In this document: positions 6,320 to 36,241 of the stretch, in pieces | Layout of the letters: the number at the start of each line of letters is the position of its first letter | Numbering within the stretch: the first letter of the stretch is position 1 | DNA from: a virus | Reading direction: 5' to 3' (one strand) | Length of the DNA: 53,703 nucleotides | UHGV virus genome: UHGV-0137934 | Position numbers and translations under genes: made by a program | Notes under the pieces: model-generated | Database searches by the model: none | Seen by the model: only the letters and a program-made list of their open reading frames with translations | What the model was told of the DNA's origin: nothing

Positions 6320-9300
6320 TTAAGAATTGGTGACGTTCTCTAAATCCAGCTCATTTTCCTTAACAATGTTGTCTCTGGTGATGGTGCTGGCCATGTAGTC
6401 AGCGCTCGCCGCGGACATGCCTTTTGCATTGCCTTTAATGATGCTGTCTTTGAGGATAGCATCTGTTAACTGGGCACTGATCCCGATCCCGTTCTGACCA
6501 TTATTCAGAAGCATGGCGCCCCGAATAATGACGTTTTCCGCCGCATTGCCAAGCTGGATACCGCTCCCGCCATTTCTGGAGAAAGAGCCACCATTAACGG
6601 AGACCTCCCGAATCGGAGTTGTGACATTTGTTGCCGCAACAACCCGCAGCCCGTGGCTCTCGTTGTCTTCTGAAATGCAGTTATCGAGGTAATATCCGCG
6701 CGCATTATCACCGATTTCAGCGTTAACATAGTCTGCCGTTTTATACACTGCAAACCCGTTGCCGTTTCCGAAGCCCATCTGACGAGGCGTGAAATAGGGA
6801 TTCTGAATCTTGCTGGTCCCGTTTTCAATCGCCTTGCAGTCAGAGAATACGGCATTTATGCCATACCGGACCTCGCCAACCTGGCTACCATTATCGGCGG
6901 CGAATCCGTTCAGGTTGCGGTATGCCGTGCAGTTAGCATAGGAAAGGCCATTACAGCCAGCGTTACCGAAGCCAACCGCATTGCCTTCGCTATAGCAGTT
7001 CGTAACGTTAACACCCACCGGGAAATCGCCGATGATTGTTTCTCCGCTACTCTCCATGTGGTTGTGCCACTCGAAGAACATGCCGTGACCATAGTTATTC
7101 CGGTTAATGCAGTTCATCACCTGAATCGGCTCCCGTCCTGCGCGAAACGCGCCTACCCCGATCCCCATCCCGGCACAGGACCCATCCTGTTTATTCTGCC
7201 CGCAACCCTCTGTCACGATATGATCCAGCACGCCGGACATAATCATGTCCACTCCGAAGCCGGTTATCGCTGATTTATAAATCCAGATATTTCGGGCTAC
7301 GAAATCCTTAACGTACTCCATATTAATCCCACGACCCGCGCGAGAGCTGAGAATGTCCAGATTAAAGCCCAGGTTTTCGAAAGTGATTTTTTCGTAAACG
7401 TGATCGCTTAACTTCTCATTTTTAAACGGAACGTCGGCGCCGCAAATAATCGTGTTGTACATCCCGTCGCCGTAGATGTGGTTGAAGCTCTTGATGTAAC
7501 AGCCGGAGATTTTATACAGCCCACTTTCCATATAAACCTTGCCGCGTTTCTGGCGCTCCATTTTCAGGCAGAGCTTTTGAAGCAACGGGGTGTAATCATA
7601 AGCGAGGGTTTTATCGGGTCGGCCTGCCAGGTCATATAATTTATAAACCGGCTCCGAGAGTTCCAGAAAGGCTCTTTCACCTCCCCGACCATTTACCAGC
7701 ACGTTGAATGCAGTGGAGTCCCTGCGCCCGTCAGACACATGCGAAATCCCGACGTAAGCCACATCGTCTGATGTGAACAGGTCAAGCAAAGTGGACGTGT
7801 TAATGCCCGTGGTCAGCGTCTCAACGGAGAGAACACCACGGTTACTGTCCAGTCTGGCCATATACATGTAGGTGTTACCTGCGGCATATGACAGCGTGAC
7901 TTCTGCATCTTTGGGGACTGCGGCGCGGTCAAAAAGGTACGTAACCGCCGTAGGAACAGAAACTAACGAACCCGCAGCATCATAGGCCAGTCCGGGGTAG
8001 ATATCGCCGTACGGATTCGACGCCGGGCCTTTAATAAAAAAGGAATCATCTTCTGTGGTACTGAAGATAACGACCTCAGGATCATAAAGTCCGGTTGCTG
8101 AATAGTTGTTAACGGCGATAAACCCGTCTTCTTCAATCAGCGCACAGGCGTATCCGTAGTAATTGTTATTAACATAGGTAAACTGCAGCGTGCTTCCAAG
8201 ATATTTGCCGATTTTGTTATATCTGGCGCCCATAAACAGTGTAGCGCCTGCATTCGTCGAGTTTTGCACTGTCCTGGCTTTCACATAATCGCCAGCCTTC
8301 ACAGGGATAAGCGCCGTGCTCATGTAGTTTACATTCGAATCCACGCGGCCTGAATTACCGTTCGACCGCACAACTCCCACTTCCCACGAATCGGCAGGGT
8401 AAGTGTACTGTTTGACCCTGGAGCCAACAGCATACTTACGCTTACGAATAAAGGCAGGAAGACTGCCGTCGGTCATATATGCGGTGACATATATCGTGCA
8501 GGCCTCAGTGGCGGTATACAGATGCTCGGTGTAGACAGAGCCCGCTTTGAAAGCAAAACTGATCGGCTCAAATACCCCCTCAGAAATATATTTAGAAAGT
8601 ACAGGCAAGCCATATTTAGCGGTTAAGGCATTTGAGTTTAAATTTACCCTGGCAAAAACAGATTCCCCGGCCTCCAGTTCAACGACATACAGCTTCTGGT
8701 ACAGGCTGGAAACCAGCGCGCCCGCCATGGAAATGTACTGATTGGGAATGATTGTCGCCGTTGCTCTGGCGTTAATGTCGGCGTAATAAACATCCGTGAC
8801 TTTATTTTCAACCAGATTCTGTGTGCTGGGGACGGCAACATCAAGAGCAGAATCCACTTCACGGCGTTTAATTAGCCCTGCTGAAATAGAGTAGCTGGAG
8901 TCCCGCGCTGCCGTGGATAAAATCGCAGTGCTTAAAGACAGTACGATGTACCCGTCGGTTGGCACGGAATAGCTATACTCTTTGATGCTTTCAGCGCCGT
9001 TGCCGATCACGCCCTCGACAAAAGACGCAGCCGAATGGCTGGAGAAAAACGCAATGGCATAGCCTGAAGACGGCAGGGCCAGACGGGCTGAAATAATACT
9101 CCCCACCGTAACCTTAATGAATCCCGTATTAAAACTGGTTGCAGATACCGTAGGGTAAGAGGTTGGCGCGCTTACGCTCACGAATCCATTATTCGGGAAT
9201 GCCTCTGCACCGCTGGCGGTCACGGCCTCACCGACAAGGGTATTTATCGCGGTTTCAAACGTCTCGAATGAAGTATAGCCACCGGCTTTATCGCTGTTAT

Positions 9301-9982
9301 CCACCGTCAGCACGTCTTTGATCACCTCACAGGCGAATGTCTGTGACGTTGCGATGCGTGTTGCCAGAATAATAAAACCATCCGCGGGGACAGCAAAAGT
9401 CCGGGTGTAAGCCTCAGGCCCGACCCCGACATTCTCGGCAGAAATAAACGTTTTGTCCTGATCGTAAAACGCAACGTTTGCGTAACTGGCGCTGTTATTC
9501 GCCGCCGTCAGTTTAAGCTGCTGGCCCTTAGTAACCGCAATATACGTTGAGTTCCTCCAGTTAGCCGAAGATACCCGCGAACCATCAGCTTTAACGATGT
9601 AGTTTGAACCGGTCAGGTCACTGAGAACGGCCAGCGGGGTAGAGCCTATAAGGCCATTGATGTAATCGACGATTTGCGCGTTCTGATACCCGGCTTTGGC
9701 CCATGCCGTCCCGTTCCAGAGGTACAGCGTCCCGGTTGCCGTGTCCATCGCCAGTGTGTTGGGTTCTGACGGCGTAAAGGCCAGTAATTCCGCCGCTGAT
9801 GCAAACCCCATCGCACCGCCCGCCGCTTTTAGTCTCGCTATCGCCTGACGCCAGGAATCCAGCGGCTCACCTTCGCGGTCGGGAACATCAGCAGCGGGGC
9901 CATTCACCAGCTTATCCAGGCGCTCGGCGTTATCGAGCAGTACCGCAGGAGAAGTGCTCCCCAGAGGAGGATTAAAGGCCAT
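6320..9982 (-). CDS. tailspike/tail fibre with right-handed beta-helix (depolymerase-like) C-terminal region, cassette B (currently in expressed orientation)
   Basis: 1220 aa; N-terminus MAFNPPLGSTSPAVLLDNAERLDKLVNGP homologous to cassette A; C-terminal Gly/Asn-rich repeats typical of parallel beta-helix polysaccharide-degrading tailspikes. Confidence 0.75.
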   Translation of the reverse strand: MAFNPPLGSTSPAVLLDNAERLDKLVNGPAADVPDREGEPLDSWRQAIARLKAAGGAMGFASAAELLAFTPSEPNTLAMDTATGTLYLWNGTAWAKAGYQNAQIVDYINGLIGSTPLAVLSDLTGSNYIVKADGSRVSSANWRNSTYIAVTKGQQLKLTAANNSASYANVAFYDQDKTFISAENVGVGPEAYTRTFAVPADGFIILATRIATSQTFACEVIKDVLTVDNSDKAGGYTSFETFETAINTLVGEAVTASGAEAFPNNGFVSVSAPTSYPTVSATSFNTGFIKVTVGSIISARLALPSSGYAIAFFSSHSAASFVEGVIGNGAESIKEYSYSVPTDGYIVLSLSTAILSTAARDSSYSISAGLIKRREVDSALDVAVPSTQNLVENKVTDVYYADINARATATIIPNQYISMAGALVSSLYQKLYVVELEAGESVFARVNLNSNALTAKYGLPVLSKYISEGVFEPISFAFKAGSVYTEHLYTATEACTIYVTAYMTDGSLPAFIRKRKYAVGSRVKQYTYPADSWEVGVVRSNGNSGRVDSNVNYMSTALIPVKAGDYVKARTVQNSTNAGATLFMGARYNKIGKYLGSTLQFTYVNNNYYGYACALIEEDGFIAVNNYSATGLYDPEVVIFSTTEDDSFFIKGPASNPYGDIYPGLAYDAAGSLVSVPTAVTYLFDRAAVPKDAEVTLSYAAGNTYMYMARLDSNRGVLSVETLTTGINTSTLLDLFTSDDVAYVGISHVSDGRRDSTAFNVLVNGRGGERAFLELSEPVYKLYDLAGRPDKTLAYDYTPLLQKLCLKMERQKRGKVYMESGLYKISGCYIKSFNHIYGDGMYNTIICGADVPFKNEKLSDHVYEKITFENLGFNLDILSSRAGRGINMEYVKDFVARNIWIYKSAITGFGVDMIMSGVLDHIVTEGCGQNKQDGSCAGMGIGVGAFRAGREPIQVMNCINRNNYGHGMFFEWHNHMESSGETIIGDFPVGVNVTNCYSEGNAVGFGNAGCNGLSYANCTAYRNLNGFAADNGSQVGEVRYGINAVFSDCKAIENGTSKIQNPYFTPRQMGFGNGNGFAVYKTADYVNAEIGDNARGYYLDNCISEDNESHGLRVVAATNVTTPIREVSVNGGSFSRNGGSGIQLGNAAENVIIRGAMLLNNGQNGIGISAQLTDAILKDSIIKGNAKGMSAASADYMASTITRDNIVKENELDLENVTNS

Positions 9983-10030
9983 GTTTTTTGCTCCAAAAAG
10001 AGGCTTCGCCCAAACGAGGGTTTGTGCGAA
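9980..10030. repeat. right inverted repeat of invertible segment; 26-bp hix/gix-like site at 10005-10030 (core AG 10017-10018)
   Basis: Reverse complement matches 3423-3473 at 49/51 positions; lies between stop of 10060..13116 and ATG of 6320..9982. Confidence 0.75.
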
Positions 10031-10059
10031 AAGAGTTAATAAGGGGTTTTTATGGGGTA

Positions 10060-13000
10060 TTAAGCGACGTCGCCGGGGTATGTGGCGTCGTCGTAGGCGT
10101 AGAAATCATCACGGTACTGACGGGCAGTCACCTGGCATGTACCATCGGATTGAGGCGCAATCTCTTCTATAATCGCGTCGTATGTCCTGCGTGAAGATGT
10201 GCAGAAAATCAGACGCGGCGGTTCGATATACGGATCATTTAATATGATCCCGTCAAACTCTGAGTCATATGGAACAGACAGCTGATAGTCACCAACCGCT
10301 GAGGCCACCAGCAAAGCGGAAGCCGAGCCATCCTGATAACGCAGGATTGCCCGTGGATTTTCAAATGACCAGTCGAGCGGCTCCGTAACCGTGAACGTTG
10401 TGACCCCGTCTGCTGTGTTCATTGCTTCAACAAGACAACTAATCGTTTTATTTCCAGGGATATCATCCGTCAGCAAAATACGATCCCCGTAATTATAACA
10501 AAGCGCGTCAAGCTCGGTCGTCGTTGAATAGTTACGCCGCTGCTTTTGATATTTCATCAGCCTGCGCATGCCTATCTGATAGGCGTGATCTCGGTTAAGA
10601 ACGCCGTCAAGTTCATAGTTTTCAACTTTAAAAGGTGTAGGGTTGCCAGGCATACGGCATTGCACCGTCTCTTCTGCCCACGTTGTACCGTTGATATAAG
10701 TGACATCAACGCCATCATAATCATCATCAGATGGCGGGGTGAAGGCTGTTTGCAGCTCTTCGGTCATTTCATGCGGGCTGATAACCCCGGTCCACGGCTT
10801 AACCCCTTCCCGCCCTACAGACGCCAGTCCATCACTCAGCAGGAAATAGGACCTCCCGGCATTAGCAATCTTCTGAAGCATTTCAAGGGCAGAGATACTG
10901 TCACCAGCAGCGAAATCGAAATACTCACCATTGGGTGTCCATACCGTGGTTTCCAGAAGATCAATGGCCTCAGTATCCATATCAAGTCCAAGCGAACCAC
11001 CAACATGATACAACGCACCTGAAATACTTCTTGCCGCACCTTTGTCATAAATTCGCGTTGCGACAACGTTCACTCGCCGATCAGACTGAGCGGCCAGCTT
11101 CCCGCCGGTTTCCACCGTCACCGCCAGAAGCGTAACGCCAGGATAAGATGCAGGCCGTGAAAGTAACCGCCCTCTCAATGCCTGCCAGTACATAGAATCA
11201 CGAGCATTGTTACTCCCTTGCTCGTTCCGGCGGCGACAACGAACTTCGACAAGGCCGGGAGTGCTGAGATCAAACCGTTCAGTAAATCCCAGGCCATTGA
11301 CGTTTTGCAGAGCATAAACGCCTTCGCGGCTGGCCCATCCGGCACCAGAACCATAAACGCGGTACTGAATTTCCCATTCACAATGGCGGATACGCTTTTT
11401 GCCTTTGTTGTCAAAACCGCAAATCCCGGAAGGAAATGAGAAGTTCACCTCGAAGGCGTCCACAACTTCATTTTCAGGACAAACAAGAAACGGCCCCATC
11501 CAGGTATTATTGTCGTTAATACCCGTAGCCTGATAATCGATCATCGTGCGCGGGGCAAACCCCAACCAAGAAGGATCAACAACACCTTCGACCACACGCT
11601 GAACCGTTGCTGTAGTACCGTCAGCATCAGCAATCCGATATTCGTTACCACGATGAGCCAGAGAAAGCCGCTGTGTCCCCTCCGGAATTCCCGAGAATGC
11701 CGCACCAGTTGCGCGACCATAAGCGAGCGTAACATTAGCCGTGATCGCAGGACTTCCACCACTTGAGGGCGTACCAGCAGTAAATTCCGGTGTGTCACCA
11801 AAAACAGAAACGGGGAGTGCTGATGATGTGATATTTCCGCCCCTCCACGGGCTGGATATTTCAACTATCCGCACAACACCGCCATCATCCTGAGCAACCA
11901 GCCCCGACCCCGTCAGCCCTTCATTAATTGCCGCCAGAAGTCCTGACATATTCAGATAATCAGCTACAAGGGAGACGGTGAAGGAAGTTGCATTCCAGGT
12001 TAAATCAAATGTCTGTCCCGATGTGGAAAAATCATAGGTTGTCGGTGCAGCATTTCCACGTACAGCAGCAGCACCTCCCCCGACACCAGGAACCGCATCC
12101 TGTTTTGGGGTATACGTTGCGATCACCAGGTCATATTCTGCACCGTTAATCTCCAGCGTGACTGGCATTCCGGCGGCTGGATTAATTTCCGCCAGCGTAT
12201 CGCTGGTAAGAACGCTATAACCCGATGAGGTTGAAACCAGATAATTGGTTGGCGCAACGATAGTTACAATAGTTCCCGTCACCCACGATTCTGGCAACGC
12301 ATTCCCTTCATCGTCATCATCGTTATCGTCGTCTAATCCGTTAAATGTCACCGATGCACCGGAAACAGTCATACTGTCAGCGGTGATGTCCGTTGAGTCA
12401 GGAGAGGTTTGAGCCATATCAAGGCCCGTCCCGCTTGACGTACCGCCCACTTCAGTCGAGTTGTACCAGTTTTCACTGCGACGATCTGCCGACACATCAG
12501 AGCCTGGTGGGTAAACATCATGGGAGAACGACTCCCCAAGCGCTGTGGTTGGAGTCTCGCCGACACGAATATCACCATTTGTGAACGCGACATTGCCAAC
12601 ACTCACGCAAAGGAGCATTTCCACACGCATGATCGTCGGGTCGTTCGGGTCAAAGCGAGTGACCGGTTGCACAACATAATCAGGGTATACACGATAGCGC
12701 CCGAATAATTCCCGGATGGGGTCACCCAATTTTGCGGTATTGGCTTTTGCCGGATTTAAATCAAGACCAGTGCCGCTCGATGAAGAGTATCCGCCTTTGT
12801 CCATATTGGACATTGTGATCAAAACATAAACAGCTGAGGCAGCAGCAATCGCCAGCGCCGCCCATGCTGCAACGGCAGCAGCCGTTGCGAAGGGGACCGG
12901 ATAAATTCGAACATCACTTTCAGGTTTGATAAAGCAAAGTGGCCACTCATGAGGAGGAACGTTAATGCCCCCCACTTCAACCGCAATCGGATGTTTTTCC

Positions 13001-28311: not shown

Positions 28312-28850
28312 AGTTCCACTCTTTCCTTTACCCAACCATAGAGAAAATCTTCATTTGCCGCCCGAGCTTCAGCAAGCTCAAGATAGCGAGCGCCCTGGCT
28401 ACAATTCAGCCCCTTCAGCAGCGTGGTTTCACCATCTTTGCCACGAACAGCGAGATAACTTTTCAGGGCGGCGATGGTGATGTTGCCGATTGCACCGTCC
28501 GGATTCAGATCCGGATATAGCTTGCCCTGCATATTCAGAGCTGATAACCAGCGCTGTAGGAATGTACTGGCGACACGTGGCCCCATGTTCACGCCGGTAT
28601 CACACAATTCCTGTGCAATGGCTGGCGACAACTCGGCGATGCGGTCGAACTTCGGTTCAGTCCAGTATTGCGACAGATAAATGGCTTTGGCTGTATCCCG
28701 TGGTAACGCCTTCATATCGCCGCTATAGCCATACGCGCGGGCAGTAGTCTGAGTGATACCCCAGCGCGTAGGGCCGCCTTTATCATTCGGGTTATTTACG
28801 TAACCCCCTTCTTTACCGAGAATGCCCTCGATAATCTGATCTGCTGTCAT
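28308..28850 (-). CDS. endolysin, GH108-type with peptidoglycan-binding C-terminal region
   Basis: 180 aa; N-terminal ILGKEGGYVNNPNDKGGPTRWGITQ motif. Confidence 0.8.
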   Translation of the reverse strand: MTADQIIEGILGKEGGYVNNPNDKGGPTRWGITQTTARAYGYSGDMKALPRDTAKAIYLSQYWTEPKFDRIAELSPAIAQELCDTGVNMGPRVASTFLQRWLSALNMQGKLYPDLNPDGAIGNITIAALKSYLAVRGKDGETTLLKGLNCSQGARYLELAEARAANEDFLYGWVKERVEL

Positions 28851-29158
28851 GGCGCCTTAACTCCGGTAATGCGCTCCCAGAAATAGGTCAAAGCAACAGA
28901 ACCCATTGCCCCGCTAATTCCGGAAGTCGCCAGTATCATGTAAATGCTCAGTCCGCTTTCAATGCTCACCAGGCCAGCAATAACGCCGGTAAACCCTGAA
29001 ACCACCATTTGGGCAAGAGCATTGAACAAGCTCCATGTTGCCTTGCTCTGCTTCACATCTATCAGGTAGCGGACAAGTCCACCCCAGCAAGCAATGATCA
29101 GCAGAACCAGCCAGGACATCCCGGCAATGCTCTCTTTGTCTTGCATACGTTTAGCCAT
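28847..29158 (-). CDS. holin
   Basis: 103 aa with about three hydrophobic helices; overlaps endolysin start; GGAGG RBS. Confidence 0.65.
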   Translation of the reverse strand: MAKRMQDKESIAGMSWLVLLIIACWGGLVRYLIDVKQSKATWSLFNALAQMVVSGFTGVIAGLVSIESGLSIYMILATSGISGAMGSVALTYFWERITGVKAP

Positions 29159-29639
29159 AGTTACCGCCTCCGATGAAAGATCGGGAAGCTGTGTGAATAA
29201 ATGGGTGGGCTCTGCGCAAGCGCCCTGCGATTGGGTTATGAACCGTCGCAGGTGAGCCCTGTATGGGGAAAGGCCGCCAGATTGATTTACGACAAAGCAC
29301 TGTGTGACTAACGTTCTGGCCGCGCATTGAGGGCTTAAGCTTCAGAAAATAAACAGATAAAAAAAATTCAAGCCACCAAAATTAAGGATCACAAAATCAA
29401 AGCATTGATTTTATTAAATAAAAATAAATCAAAGCAAAAAATAGGAATGCAGACAAGCATATTTTACTTATTAATAAGTAATTTACGGAATTAGACACCA
29501 TAAAAATCAATAAAATCAATAAACCATAAATTCAGATTAATTAGTTAAAATTAACAAGTTTTAAGGGTTAGGATTTTTCTCACTACAACTATAAATTCCT
29601 GCCAATCAATGAAAGAAAGTACTTTGGGGTAGAAATTAC

Positions 29640-29762
29640 ATGTCAAATTTACTGATGCTAGCCTTAGCTATAGCTCTTCTTCTTATTGGTATTGGTTTTC
29701 TTGTCTCTTATATAAGAGACAGGAAAAGATATAAAAATACTTTTAAAAATAGGCGTAGATAA
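29640..29762 (+). CDS. small membrane peptide A (40 aa, TM helix plus basic tail RDRKRYKNTFKNRRR)
   Basis: Paralogue of peptide at 31509-31628; shared upstream motif GTTAGGATTTTTC. Confidence 0.4.
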   Translation: MSNLLMLALAIALLLIGIGFLVSYIRDRKRYKNTFKNRRR

Positions 29763-30060
29763 CCACTTACCAGAAATAGAAAGATGTTAGACACATCTTC
29801 TGACCAATAAAATTATAAACCTAAGGGATTTCGACCAAATCATTTTCATAACTTCGCGTTAGCTAACAATTTCTTTGTCTGAACACGCTGCAAATTAAAA
29901 GGCTTAACTAGTTTGCATAGGCTGGAGTGTCGCGATTATTTACAGTGCTTTAGTAAATCGCTATGATTTACGGACTGGGGAGGCCTGAGACTCACCCCAG
30001 TGCCCTTAAAATCTGATTGATGCTTTTGAGGTCCGCTTCCCGAAGTGGACCTTTTTTTGC

Positions 30061-30088
30061 CCAAAGAAAAGGCCCGCCGAAGCGAGCC
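30061..30088 (-). terminator. intrinsic terminator (minus strand)
   Basis: Minus-strand hairpin GGCTCGC-TTCG-GCGGGCC followed by TTTTCTTT. Confidence 0.5.
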
Positions 30089-30119
30089 TGCCACTGCTGT
30101 TTCTTTGTTTGTATTGGTT

Positions 30120-30253
30120 GTGGTGCCGGGTGCCTCCCGGTGAGCTTTTGGGTGACCGACCATAGCTCGCGTTCATTAGCTTCTAACTCTGCTGACGTTA
30201 CCGTGCCACATTGTCTGGTCAGTTCCGCCCCGCCGCACAGGGGGATTCACCAC
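30120..30253. repeat. structured element A (134 nt) with conserved termini GTGGTGCCGGGTGCCTCCCGGTGAGC ... GGGGGATTCACCAC
   Basis: Paralogue of 31142-31253; termini can pair (GTGGTG/CACCAC); internal CCGGG...CCCGG hairpin; ERIC-like end motif. Confidence 0.35.
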
Positions 30254-30324
30254 GCACTTTAATTAACCAACCATTTAGACTCATGTCAATTATTTGTGTT
30301 CTATGCATCAACGTAGATAATCCG

Positions 30325-30522
30325 CTAACCAATAACTCTTCTGGCTGTTGTGTAAATTTTCGTCAAATACAGATCTTTTGTCTGATCATTATGAATTTGA
30401 AGCATCAAATGCAAAGTCTGATCTGTAATAGGTTGGCCGGTTTCTTTTAGCATTATGATAGCTCTACCCAGCACTCGACAGACATCATCGTACATAGCCT
30501 GGTGTTCTTCTTTTGGCGACAT
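30325..30522 (-). CDS. small regulatory-type protein (possibly AriR/YmgB-like connector family)
   Basis: 65 aa from ATG at 30522 with GGGAG RBS; weak family resemblance only. Confidence 0.35.
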   Translation of the reverse strand: MSPKEEHQAMYDDVCRVLGRAIIMLKETGQPITDQTLHLMLQIHNDQTKDLYLTKIYTTARRVIG

Positions 30523-30538
30523 TCTACGGGCTCCCTGA

Positions 30539-30757
30539 TCACATCGGCTTCGCTTCAAATTGACTCATTGCAAGAAGATTTTCCCACAAATTATTGGCTG
30601 GGCTCAAGGCAAATAAGCAGCTTACAGGATGATCGGGGAGCAGGTCAAAGAAGTGTCTGAAAACATGTGACTGAATCTCCAGCTTTGGGCGGAGCTGGCA
30701 GGTTGCTTTGGTTGCTGGATTTTTAAACTCGCAACCATGAAATGCTTCTCTCAGCAT
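30539..30757 (-). CDS. hypothetical ORF
   Basis: 72 aa, poor RBS. Confidence 0.2.
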   Translation of the reverse strand: MLREAFHGCEFKNPATKATCQLRPKLEIQSHVFRHFFDLLPDHPVSCLFALSPANNLWENLLAMSQFEAKPM

Positions 30758-30940
30758 TGCATTAAGGAAAGGCTCGATAATTGATTTGCTTATACCTGGA
30801 ACCGACTCAACGAGGGTTTTAAAGTGAGCCGCAGTATTTGCTGCGACACTGGTTGCAATAGCTATATGGCTGGATACTTCAACCCCCCTCAGTGCCAGAA
30901 AGCCCCCCTCTTATTGCTGTGAGTCCTCTCATGAACGAGG

Positions 30941-30971
30941 GGAAAAAAAAAGCCCGCTTTGAGAGCGGGCT
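30941..30971 (-). terminator. intrinsic terminator (minus strand)
   Basis: Hairpin AGCCCGC-TTTGAGA-GCGGGCT with 8-nt U-run on minus strand. Confidence 0.6.
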
Positions 30972-31141
30972 GAAAAAGTTGGCTTTCGAGGAGTAACGAT
31001 AAAGAAAGGTTCCTGATAGTCCGAGCTACCGATTTACCAGAAAAGCATTCCCTTTAATGTCGTTACTGTAATTAACCATAGTCTGCCAAAGAGGATGAGT
31101 AAACCTAACAGGATGTTCAGTTTACTTACTTGCGATTAGAT

Positions 31142-31253
31142 GTGGTGCCGGGTGCCTCCCGGTGAGCATGCCCCAACAGACATCACTCGCGTGGTATTCA
31201 CAGGGCTTTCGCTCTATTAGTTGGACGCCCCTCCGCATAGGGGGATTCACCAC
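31142..31253. repeat. structured element B (112 nt), paralogue of element A
   Basis: Identical 26-nt 5' end and near-identical 3' end to element A; variable middle. Confidence 0.35.
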
Positions 31254-31508
31254 AACAATAGATTAGCCATGCAGCATTCACATAGTCAATACCCTGTAGT
31301 TATAGGGTATATACGCATGCCGACAACTCTTAAATAAGTCAGAACACGATTAATTAATGCATATGAAATCATTACGGTATTAATGATAAAAACTCATACA
31401 AAACAATAAATTTAAAAGGAATTATCCGTTAGGATTTTTCCTACGCCAATCGCAAACTACGTTTTATAAAAACAAGAATGTCCATACTCTTTCCAGAGGT
31501 TAACTCAC

Positions 31509-31628
31509 ATGACAGCCATACTGATGATAGCGTTAGCTGTAGTTCTTCTTTTAGTTGCTGTGGGATTCCTGATTTCTTACATCAAAGAAAGGCGTAGATA
31601 TAAAAACACCTTTAAAAAATGGCACTAG
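31509..31628 (+). CDS. small membrane peptide B (39 aa)
   Basis: MTAILMIALAVVLLLVAVGFLISYIKERRRYKNTFKKWH; AGAGG RBS; paralogue of peptide A. Confidence 0.4.
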   Translation: MTAILMIALAVVLLLVAVGFLISYIKERRRYKNTFKKWH

Positions 31629-31657
31629 CCGATTGTTTGGGCAATCTTCAGGAGGGG

Positions 31658-31807
31658 TTATCCCCTCCGCTTCCATGCTGATAAACGGTTCAAGAAGAAC
31701 GCCAGTATCACGATAATCACCACCATATCCATCAGCATACCAGCCAGTCGCCAGCCTACGAACAGTAGAACACCAAACGGCACCCAGAAACACAGCCTGC
31801 GCAGCAT
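31658..31807 (-). CDS. small two-helix membrane protein (49 aa), coupled to upstream binding-protein gene
   Basis: MLRRLCFWVPFGVLLFVGWRLAGMLMDMVVIIVILAFFLNRLSAWKRRG; ATG 3 nt after stop of 31810..32655; not in ORF track (under 60 aa). Confidence 0.4.
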   Translation of the reverse strand: MLRRLCFWVPFGVLLFVGWRLAGMLMDMVVIIVILAFFLNRLSAWKRRG

Positions 31808-35392: not shown

Positions 35393-36223
35393 TTATGCGA
35401 TATTTATGAAATCAGACACCTTTGTCACACGTTTAAGTTGTGAGTCGGTATAACTCTCTTCCTCAAAGCATTTTGTAACCAGACTTTCATAGAAAGGTTT
35501 CCAGCTGTATCGCCAGGTACGTTCTGGCAGACCAGGCAGCTCAGAGAGTATACCTCTGTAAGCATTTGAAGACTTAGGACGACTATAACCGCGACCTTCA
35601 CAACGTTTACATACTTTGTAGACAGGCACTCCCTGCAGCTCTGACTCTTTACGGTCCAGGGTTTTTCCCGTACCGCCACACTGGCATCGCTTGCTGATTT
35701 TCCCGGTGCCGCCGCATTTAAAGCAGAGAACATGGTCAATCTCTTCCACCTGACGTTTTACTTCAAAATCCGAAGGTGACTGCCCGAGGTCTTTTGCCCA
35801 TTGCGGTAATCTCATTTTGTAGTGGCTTTTTTCCACCATTGAGGTTTTTTTTATGAAGCCTGAACCAGAACACTTCCTGCAATCTACGCTGTCAGCTGCA
35901 GACGAGGCATAGTCGTTATAAGCGAACCGAGCTATTATCAGCATACACAGCGGGAACTTCTTCCCTGCTGCTTTTCTTATCGATCGAGGCGCTTTTGATT
36001 TTGCATATTCAGCCAACCAACTGACGGATGCCTTTCTGTCGTGTTCGCTGATTCCAGCTTTACCCAAAAACATTGACAGGCCTATTCCCGCCTCTGCCTG
36101 TGTCATCCCCAGTGCGGCCATTACATCTGTCACAGTGAGTTGCTCGCTGGCGGTTGCACGACCGCTATCGGAAATATGCATTCCTTTGGGCGCGAAAAAT
36201 TTGGGAATTGATTCAATATTCAT
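35393..36223 (-). CDS. Q-like late antiterminator (zinc-finger type)
   Basis: About 276 aa; CxxC...CxxC motifs; position upstream of late promoter/terminator. Confidence 0.5.
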   Translation of the reverse strand: MNIESIPKFFAPKGMHISDSGRATASEQLTVTDVMAALGMTQAEAGIGLSMFLGKAGISEHDRKASVSWLAEYAKSKAPRSIRKAAGKKFPLCMLIIARFAYNDYASSAADSVDCRKCSGSGFIKKTSMVEKSHYKMRLPQWAKDLGQSPSDFEVKRQVEEIDHVLCFKCGGTGKISKRCQCGGTGKTLDRKESELQGVPVYKVCKRCEGRGYSRPKSSNAYRGILSELPGLPERTWRYSWKPFYESLVTKCFEEESYTDSQLKRVTKVSDFINIA

Positions 36224-36241
36224 GCTCAGTACTCCATACAC

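Follow-up and report, generated by a model that had tools for sequence, protein, structure and literature searches.

Results

Two kinds of small unit lie in duplicate between Q and the lysis genes

We analyzed the 53,703-nucleotide (nt) stretch of UHGV virus genome UHGV-0137934 (hereafter the window), which holds a lambdoid Klebsiella-type prophage, and concentrated on the ~6 kb of add-on (moron) DNA that separates Q and its PR'-tR' late promoter unit (~35.3-36.2 kb, minus strand) from the holin gene (29.16 kb). The flagged part of this island holds two kinds of small unit in two copies each, a small RNA (sRNA) gene and a gene for a membrane peptide. The sRNA genes are minus-strand members of STnc100 (RF02076), a prophage family of Hfq-bound RNAs related to EcOnc27/sRNA103/PasD, and the peptides fall by profile match into the KPN01023 family; judging from their promoter-like sequences, both kinds of unit appear to be transcribed independently. 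The initial annotation of this DNA had placed the duplicated units in a moron island beside the lysis cassette, and the flanking Q, holin, and GH108 endolysin genes agree with that placement. It is a typical moron region and not a new system. The four units are as follows.

30060-30255, minus: STnc100-A sRNA gene (core 30254-30119; terminator 30089-30070; RF02076, 97.3 bits)
31141-31254, minus: STnc100-B sRNA core (RF02076, 70.3 bits)
29640-29762, plus: peptide A, 40 amino acids (aa), one transmembrane (TM) helix and a basic tail (NF033853, 42.8 bits)
31509-31628, plus: peptide B, 39 aa, KPN01023 / NF033853 (46.2 bits)

The repeated elements are STnc100 sRNA genes

An Rfam scan of the whole window returned only two matches above the gathering score, both to STnc100 (RF02076; gathering score 47 bits; model positions 1-206 of 206) and both on the minus strand, at 30282-30059 (97.3 bits, E 5.9e-20) and 31282-31099 (70.3 bits). 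The elements had been described as structured minus-strand RNAs that end at intrinsic terminators, and the Rfam check gives that description a family for both copies. The shared architecture noted at the outset is also borne out: the window contains two copies, and no more, of the 26-nt end GTGGTGCCGGGTGCCTCCCGGTGAGC (30120-30145 and 31142-31167; expectation 0), the opposite end GGGGGATTCACCAC is common to both elements, and the middles are unlike in sequence and length. Pairing of the termini, likewise proposed, recurs in the predicted single-sequence folds of both copies, which are multibranched and closed by GUGGUG/CACCAC.

The family fold was derived from more than 120 members on viral contigs, retrieved by a conserved-end pattern and reduced to 38 variants with differing middles; because of this mode of retrieval, the ends carry little independent information in the alignment. 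For the 38 diverse members, RNAalifold found 26 consensus pairs, 14 of them with compensatory changes. The consensus fold is a four-way junction. Its closing stem leads into a first hairpin that does not vary; next come a hypervariable insert held by a GCG/CGC clamp, a hairpin with strong covariation, and finally the invariant CCGGG-AGGCA-CCCGG hairpin. The closing stem itself takes forms such as GGCG/CGCC, GAUG/CAUC, and GCAGUG/CACUGC across the family. A covariance model built from this alignment scored STnc100-B at 88.1 bits and STnc100-A at 86.0 bits and found nothing else in 27-37 kb. A decayed third copy had been seen by eye at ~29235-29340, which would have given peptide A the same geometry as peptide B; the unfiltered covariance model finds nothing there. 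A tRNA- or tmRNA-like identity of the elements was rejected as well, ARAGORN having detected neither class of RNA in the window.

The family has experimental precedent. STnc100 overlaps EcOnc27 (= sRNA103), an Hfq-crosslinked and northern-confirmed RNA encoded just downstream of stx2B (PMC12711010, PMC7873438, PMC12370729). A 2026 preprint by Zhu, Shabalina, and Storz (bioRxiv 10.64898/2026.05.13.724894) relates STnc100 to PasD and links both to a Q of the PF03589 type and to a holin/lysozyme operon.

A match to another Rfam family, isrB, lies below threshold (28.6 versus 35 bits) at 30067-30149 on the minus strand, over the 3' hairpin and terminator of STnc100-A, and is also seen in the Klebsiella pneumoniae prophage L149. 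The two Salmonella island sRNA families, isrB and STnc100, may share a 3' module.

STnc100 genes carry promoter-like sequences at a fixed position

In 140 unique family members, we looked for promoters at all distances from the conserved 5' end; a good sigma-70 match had to agree at 8 or more of the 12 positions and to have A and T as the second and sixth bases of its -10 hexamer. A single sharp peak emerged: in 35% of the 140 members the -10 hexamer ends 8-9 nt before GGTGAA, and in a further 6% it is one base off, while at other offsets a match was mostly found in 0-1% of members and never in more than 5%. The predicted transcription start coincides with the conserved GUGGUG. Both copies in the window have promoter-like elements at positions that match the family-wide peak, and each promoter would start transcription at the conserved GUGGUGAAUCCCCC.

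30261-30289, minus: promoter-like element of STnc100-A, -35 TTGACA (30289-30284), 17-nt spacer, -10 TTAATT (30266-30261)
31262-31289, minus: promoter-like element of STnc100-B, -35 TTGACT (31289-31284), 16-nt spacer, -10 GCTAAT (31267-31262)
30951-30971, minus: intrinsic terminator nearest to STnc100-B, 8-bp stem followed by a T9 run

At the STnc100-B promoter, the block TAGTCAAT is invariant in all B-type modules, in which the peptide gene diverges from the sRNA gene. The minus-strand intrinsic terminator of STnc100-A (30089-30070) is adjacent to the element. For STnc100-B, the nearest terminator lies ~170 nt past the core; it probably ends the transcript, which would then run ~310 nt, to 30945. 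The initial annotation had put each element between a gene stop and a terminator. This holds for element A, which follows the stop at 30325, and does not hold for element B, where no minus-strand gene directly precedes the element, the plus-strand peptide B gene intervenes before the nearest minus-strand stop (31658), and the terminator is not adjacent.

Because the promoter peak is fixed in position across the family and -35 hexamers are present in both copies, we conclude that the sequence points to stand-alone sRNA genes with primary transcripts rather than fragments of 3' untranslated regions (3'-UTRs). In Salmonella LT2, RpoD binds the STnc100 copies (PMC10794520). We also considered STnc100 as the leader of PR', in the manner of lambda 6S RNA/StxS, and rejected it: a separate PR'-tR' unit follows Q in both the window and L149, and STnc100 is multi-copy and far from Q.

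A candidate convergent sRNA abuts STnc100-A

On the opposite strand, a candidate partner sRNA meets STnc100-A terminator to terminator.

29939-30060, plus: candidate convergent partner sRNA, promoter TTTACA-17-TATGAT (29939-29967), transcript ~87 nt (29974-30060)

Its promoter agrees with the consensus at 10 of 12 positions, and its fold (z-score -2.99) comprises a 5' hairpin and an A/U-rich single strand before the terminator at 30028-30053, which is followed by a T7 run. In an alignment, two partner variants keep the positions of promoter and hairpins, with differing hairpin sequences. With nhmmer we found 15 partner copies in the loci searched; each of the 15 converges on an STnc100 core, in 14 cases at a distance of ~55 nt. 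The partner has no Rfam family, and neither AsxR nor AgvB (RF02703, RF02702) matched it at E ≤ 1.

For at least eight Sakai prophages, Tree et al. (2014) described sRNA genes in convergent pairs that lie downstream of PR', with the moron coding sequence on one side and the lysis region on the other (PMC4104026), and EcOnc27/STnc100, Hfq-crosslinked and visible on northern blots, occurs in such pairs (PMC4104026, PMC7873438, PMC12711010). STnc100-A would pair with the candidate partner in this same arrangement, already described for prophages of enterohemorrhagic Escherichia coli (EHEC). The convergent architecture of EHEC moron sites is thereby extended to Klebsiella-type prophages.

The peptides belong to a Klebsiella family of small membrane proteins

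The peptides encoded at 29640-29762 (MSNLLMLALAIALLLIGIGFLVSYIRDRKRYKNTFKNRRR) and 31509-31628 (MTAILMIALAVVLLLVAVGFLISYIKERRRYKNTFKKWH) had been recognized as paralogs of 39-40 aa, which is supported by an amino-acid identity of 59% and a nucleotide identity of ~79% across the locus. They had also been called unassignable to a family. Both exceed the curated cut-off of NCBIfam NF033853 (33 bits), and their relatives carry PF28118, so that by sequence both are members of NF033853 'KPN_two_small' / Pfam PF28118 (KPN01023) 'small membrane protein'. The exact sequence of peptide A is already in NCBI as a Klebsiella 'small membrane protein', and that of peptide B is there for Klebsiella on 54 contigs. 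A profile search gave 41 related clusters, all PF28118, and every cluster with a named source was from Klebsiella or Raoultella; the family is found almost only in these two genera. A scan of viral contigs yielded 23 peptide loci, and a scan of species-representative genomes yielded a single one, from Raoultella. A tblastn search of the phage collection with peptide B produced no match, probably owing to the low-complexity filter.

Ratios of nonsynonymous to synonymous substitution (dN/dS) lie between 0 and 0.4 for the B-type and A-versus-B comparisons (0.34 for A versus B), and peptide B differs from its counterpart in locus L013 by nine synonymous and no nonsynonymous changes. A GAGG or GGGG motif stands 9 nt 5' of the ATG in both genes. 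These features indicate, on sequence grounds, that the genes are translated and under purifying selection, in keeping with the view that the peptides are conserved small membrane proteins. Read from the sequence, a hydrophobic segment spans approximately residues 3-24 and is followed by a basic tail.

The motif said to precede both peptides is real: within the 53.7 kb, each of the two peptide genes has a copy of GTTAGGATTTTTC on its 5' side (29567-29579 and 31428-31440), and there is no third copy; dinucleotide shuffles predict 0.13 occurrences. Part of it has the appearance of a -35 hexamer.

29568-29595, plus: promoter-like element of peptide A, -35 TTAGGA (within GTTAGGATTTTTC), 16-nt spacer, -10 TATAAA
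31429-31458, plus: promoter-like element of peptide B, -35 TTAGGA, 18-nt spacer, -10 CAAACT

In a comparison of 14 upstream regions, every one had TTAGGA at the same spacing from the ATG. The hexamer downstream of it is mostly yAnnCT, 18 nt on, in B-type loci and TATAAA, 16 nt on, in A-type loci, where the peptide gene converges with the sRNA gene. TTAGGA is likely the -35 element of a weak peptide promoter.

PHROG and PADLOC matches of the peptides to holin (E 0.0085) and ZorB (E 0.003) were discounted as weak similarity of TM segments. Inside the coding sequence of peptide A, at 29698-29717 (plus strand), lies a perfect 20-nt palindrome, TGTCTCTTATATAAGAGACA, which draws spurious microRNA-family matches on both strands; it is present in the independent assemblies L001, L006, L010, and L012 and absent from peptide B.

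The surrounding island

Directly after the Q stop codon, a late promoter unit is followed on the minus strand by a series of moron genes that ends at the lysis cassette.

35393-36241, minus: Q antiterminator (PF03589 match)
35376-35285, minus: PR'-tR'-like late promoter unit that follows the Q stop directly, with TTGCAA-16-TAATTT, AACGATGGG, and terminator 35310-35291 in this order
30539-30880, minus: truncated phrog_16499 remnant between the sRNA genes, matched only at profile positions 47-126 of 247
30325-30522, minus: 65-aa moron open reading frame (ORF) between the two sRNA genes, phrog_33151 (PHROG E 3.6e-28)
28847-29158, minus: LydA-type holin, which opens the lysis cassette and bounds the island on its downstream side (PF16083, E 1.3e-20)

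AACGATGGG, which is conserved, lies in the early transcribed region of the late unit, with the intrinsic terminator ~30 nt beyond it, and the same layout after Q is repeated in L149 (7700-7590). The order in the minus-strand direction after PR'-tR' is a winged-helix ORF, an N6/N4 DNA methylase, phrog_3501, phrog_5286 (plus strand), a TAXI-like solute-binding protein, a 49-aa ORF with two TM segments, peptide B (plus strand), STnc100-B, a terminator, the truncated phrog_16499 remnant, phrog_33151, STnc100-A, the back-to-back terminator pair, peptide A (plus strand), the LydA-type holin, and a GH108 endolysin. Upstream of 30757, the phrog_16499 region (30539-30943, minus strand) offers no canonical start codon, and G/C homopolymer runs adjoin it; from its sequence, the fragment looks like a decayed moron. 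Around peptide A the GC content is 24-28% and around peptide B it is 34%, versus ~52% for the lysis genes. The Q - STnc100 - holin order on one strand recurs in four K. pneumoniae prophages, one E. coli prophage, and three annotated Klebsiella phages.

The 49-aa ORF (31658-31807, minus strand), with its two predicted TM segments, lies immediately 3' of the TAXI-like gene and is convergent with peptide B; a GGAGGGG/CCCCTCC hairpin (31651-31668) overlaps its stop codon, and a related remnant is found in L149. In L149 itself, a 30-aa hydrophobic ORF, MSLIELEGAIAWFFVVVFATFLIDLWFRHK, lies 3' of tR' (7493-7400, minus strand), apparently with its own promoter-like sequence and terminator. By its sequence, it would be another small membrane peptide of the same island.

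STnc100 genes appear to favor mosaic junctions

When pairs of loci share sequence on one side of the STnc100 core, the similarity is lost on the other side in 77-82% of them, compared with 40-59% at equally spaced control junctions; the analysis covered 106-136 non-redundant loci, its result was stable across parameter settings, and the locus pairs are not independent of one another. In the window, BLAST homology to relatives breaks off at 30142 and is picked up again at 31222-31226, both points lying within the conserved ends. The sRNA of locus L014 is chimeric, with a 3' end like copy A and a 5' end like copy B, and 22 of 120 loci have two to five STnc100 copies arrayed on the same strand. 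Tandem arrays of three to five copies are found in L067 (4381-5458), L033 (2330-3346), L037, L043, and L123; they have a period of ~250 nt, and each central region is different.

These observations are suggestive of STnc100 genes favoring mosaic junctions between related prophages. They could mean that the invariant ends act chiefly as DNA homology "linkers" for the exchange of morons, with any RNA role secondary. The excess of homology breaks at the core, the break inside the conserved ends of the window, the chimera, and the arrays all speak for such a function, which is compatible with the sRNA interpretation. On the other hand, the locus pairs are not independent, the site is a boundary between moron and lysis modules in any case, and RNA structure accounts for the conservation of the ends, the changes in the closing stem being compensatory. 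Moreover, efficient homologous recombination usually needs longer tracts, the 26-nt and ~15-nt tracts available here being near or below the usual minimum. We regard a linker function as the chief role as rather unlikely, albeit with an appreciable chance of being right.

The sRNA and peptide genes are probably inherited as a block

An STnc100 gene is present on all 23 viral contigs that carry the peptide, whereas the peptide is present in only 2 of the 120 loci retrieved through STnc100. Two arrangements occur. In B-type loci, the peptide gene diverges from the sRNA gene at 254-258 nt from the sRNA 5' end, in about five sequence classes with unrelated outer flanks. In A-type loci, it lies ~360 nt from the sRNA 3' end (481 nt in L012). 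In Raoultella locus L005, two intact peptide genes enclose an STnc100 that has decayed (14.7 bits, E 0.0025).

Predicted duplex energies between sRNA and peptide mRNA were no better than those of shuffled controls for all four pairs (z -0.01 to +1.6), and the longest complementary runs, 8-10 nt by Watson-Crick pairing and 11-13 nt when G-U pairs are allowed, fell inside the shuffle range. The idea that STnc100 serves as the antitoxin of the peptide was rejected by these complementarity tests.

The L005 region, on a contig of a Raoultella metagenome-assembled genome, has its tandem KPN01023-family genes at 10001-10727 with the decayed STnc100 at 10285-10356. The pair adjoins an STnc490 match (9274-9397); a rydB match (1140-1200) is further off, and transposase-like ORFs are near. 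From the sequence it looks like a degraded prophage remnant.

Given the 2 of 120 loci, the chance-level complementarity, and the intact peptides beside a decayed sRNA in L005, the co-inheritance of sRNA and peptide genes most plausibly reflects descent of a single DNA block from a common ancestor and not a regulatory pairing of the two RNAs. The block comprising STnc100, the intergenic DNA, and KPN01023 could in addition be a lysogeny module that is co-regulated from a shared divergent control region, the STnc100 ends also serving as recombination linkers for moron swaps and for arrays with new target-recognition middles. We consider this extended proposal unlikely.

Discussion

The results reported above lead us to interpret the locus as two independent STnc100 sRNA genes and two KPN01023 peptide genes in a lambdoid moron island, an explanation to which, taken as a whole, we assign a probability of roughly 0.8. 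In lysogens, the STnc100 copies would most likely be Hfq-bound, trans-acting base-pairing sRNAs, by homology with EcOnc27/sRNA103 and PasD, and the two copies would differ in their targets, since their central regions differ. During lytic growth, Q-modified polymerase would read through the STnc100 genes, as lambdoid Q action suggests. Each peptide gene, in AT-rich DNA on the strand opposite the sRNAs, would have its own weak promoter. In the membrane, the peptide would be oriented with its very short N terminus toward the periplasm and its conserved basic tail, SYI..R..YKNTFK, in the cytoplasm. The peptides are most likely made in the lysogen and would act on a membrane-associated component of the host or phage. 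The mechanism suggested for the sRNAs rests on homology; that for the peptides is one we infer.

Several points weigh against this interpretation. The -10 hexamers are weak in both window copies (TTAATT and GCTAAT). The Hfq and expression evidence comes from E. coli and Salmonella homologs. A plain Hfq sRNA would not usually have so tight a scaffold with hairpins that do not vary, and the scaffold may have some other role. STnc100-B scores lower in Rfam and has no adjacent terminator; it may be impaired or yield a longer RNA. Within the window, the search for targets of the variable regions gave only chance-level 12-mers and no candidate. The function of the peptides is wholly what we infer, the literature searched containing no experimental work on PF28118/NF033853/KPN01023 and the family entries examined stating no function for KPN01023/NF033853.

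The initial annotation had favored a comparison with sRNAs derived from 3'-UTRs, and the elements could indeed belong to the 3'-UTRs of the upstream moron genes, either as structures within them or as sRNAs processed from them, and have no promoter of their own. Element A begins ~70 nt after the phrog_33151 stop and ends at a terminator, and in Stx2 phages a family member is found 75 nt after stx2B (PMC12370729). The family-wide promoter peak in the 140 members, with TTGACA and TTGACT in the two copies, argues against this origin; in addition, no same-strand gene directly precedes element B, the copies in arrays succeed one another without an ORF between them, and RpoD binding is seen at the Salmonella copies (PMC10794520). 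We hold a 3'-UTR origin to be quite improbable and favor independent sRNA genes.

It had also been suggested that the peptides resemble type I toxins or small membrane modulators, and the second possibility may be right. In a type I system resembling tisB/istR-1 or zorO/orzO, the neighboring STnc100 RNA would be the antitoxin and would pair with the mRNA of its toxin. In favor of this are the small size, hydrophobicity, and basic tail of the peptides, the divergence of the B-type genes at a fixed 254-258 nt in a layout known from several type I systems, and the presence of an STnc100 gene at all 25 peptide-bearing loci on the viral contigs. However, duplex energies and complementary runs stayed within shuffled controls, and no complementary or antisense RNA partner was found in these comparisons; only 2 of 120 STnc100 loci contain the peptide; L005 retains an intact peptide beside a decayed sRNA (14.7 bits); the A-type and B-type geometries differ; and the strongly conserved cytoplasmic tail motif is atypical of pore-forming toxins. 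A toxin-antitoxin pair is therefore very unlikely in our estimation, and we return to separate sRNA and peptide genes. Finally, elements of the enterobacterial repetitive intergenic consensus (ERIC) or intergenic repeat unit (IRU) type, to which the element ends had been likened and whose end presumably shares the ~10-nt run GGGGATTCAC (as in the ERIC1R primer), are hardly credible here, judged on architecture and distribution: the best-scoring family is an sRNA, the covarying four-way junction is multibranched and no long palindrome such as the 127-bp imperfect one of ERIC, and the elements lie in prophage Q-holin regions rather than genome-wide, megablast having located the query region in only 56 of the 5426 complete E. 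coli genomes, with a median of one site per genome.

The duplicated items are thus further copies of catalogued families, STnc100 and KPN01023, and the practical gain is in annotation: two unexplained repeats become members of a known prophage sRNA family and a known small-protein family. Three leads follow, namely a Klebsiella-restricted membrane peptide inherited together with an STnc100 gene, the position of STnc100 at mosaic junctions and in arrays of up to five copies, and a conserved convergent partner sRNA that has no Rfam family. They are modest, none is established, and none alters the understanding of these systems.

Comparison with known systems

The closest comparison is with STnc100/EcOnc27/sRNA103 of EHEC Stx2 and Salmonella prophages. 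The window copies share with it the full-length match, the closing stem, and the hairpins CCCCC..GGGG and CCGGGAGGCACCCGG, as well as the location on the late-gene strand, between Q/PR' and the lysis genes and just after a moron coding sequence. They differ in residing in a Klebsiella-type prophage, in having other central regions, and in forming two copies 1 kb apart that flank a decayed moron, with copy B lacking an adjacent terminator. The convergent pairs EcOnc27/AsxR and EcOnc06/AgvB likewise consist of an STnc100-type sRNA abutting a convergent short sRNA downstream of PR' in the moron site; only the convergent position is common to the partners, since the candidate here measures ~87 nt and AsxR and AgvB measure 51-60 nt, of which ~42 nt form a conserved 3' region. 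PasD1 and PasD2 of enteropathogenic E. coli, known from Hfq RIL-seq and compared here by the description in the preprint, are reported there as structural homologs of STnc100 with the same linkage to Q PF03589 and holin/lysozyme genes and with seeds and targets that differ from those of STnc100. Lambda 6S RNA/StxS, the PR'-tR' leader, is also a short terminated lysogen RNA of the Q-to-lysis region, but STnc100 is found 4-5 kb further downstream than the PR'-tR' unit and in several copies.

For the peptides, tisB/istR-1, shoB/ohsC, and zorO/orzO offer the similar picture of a small hydrophobic peptide gene beside a divergent sRNA gene; unlike those systems, the present one displays no sRNA-mRNA complementarity, an sRNA family mostly without the peptide, and a peptide beside a decayed sRNA. 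With KPN01023/NF033853, in contrast, there is no notable difference: both peptides score above the family cut-off, and identical sequences are already annotated in Klebsiella.

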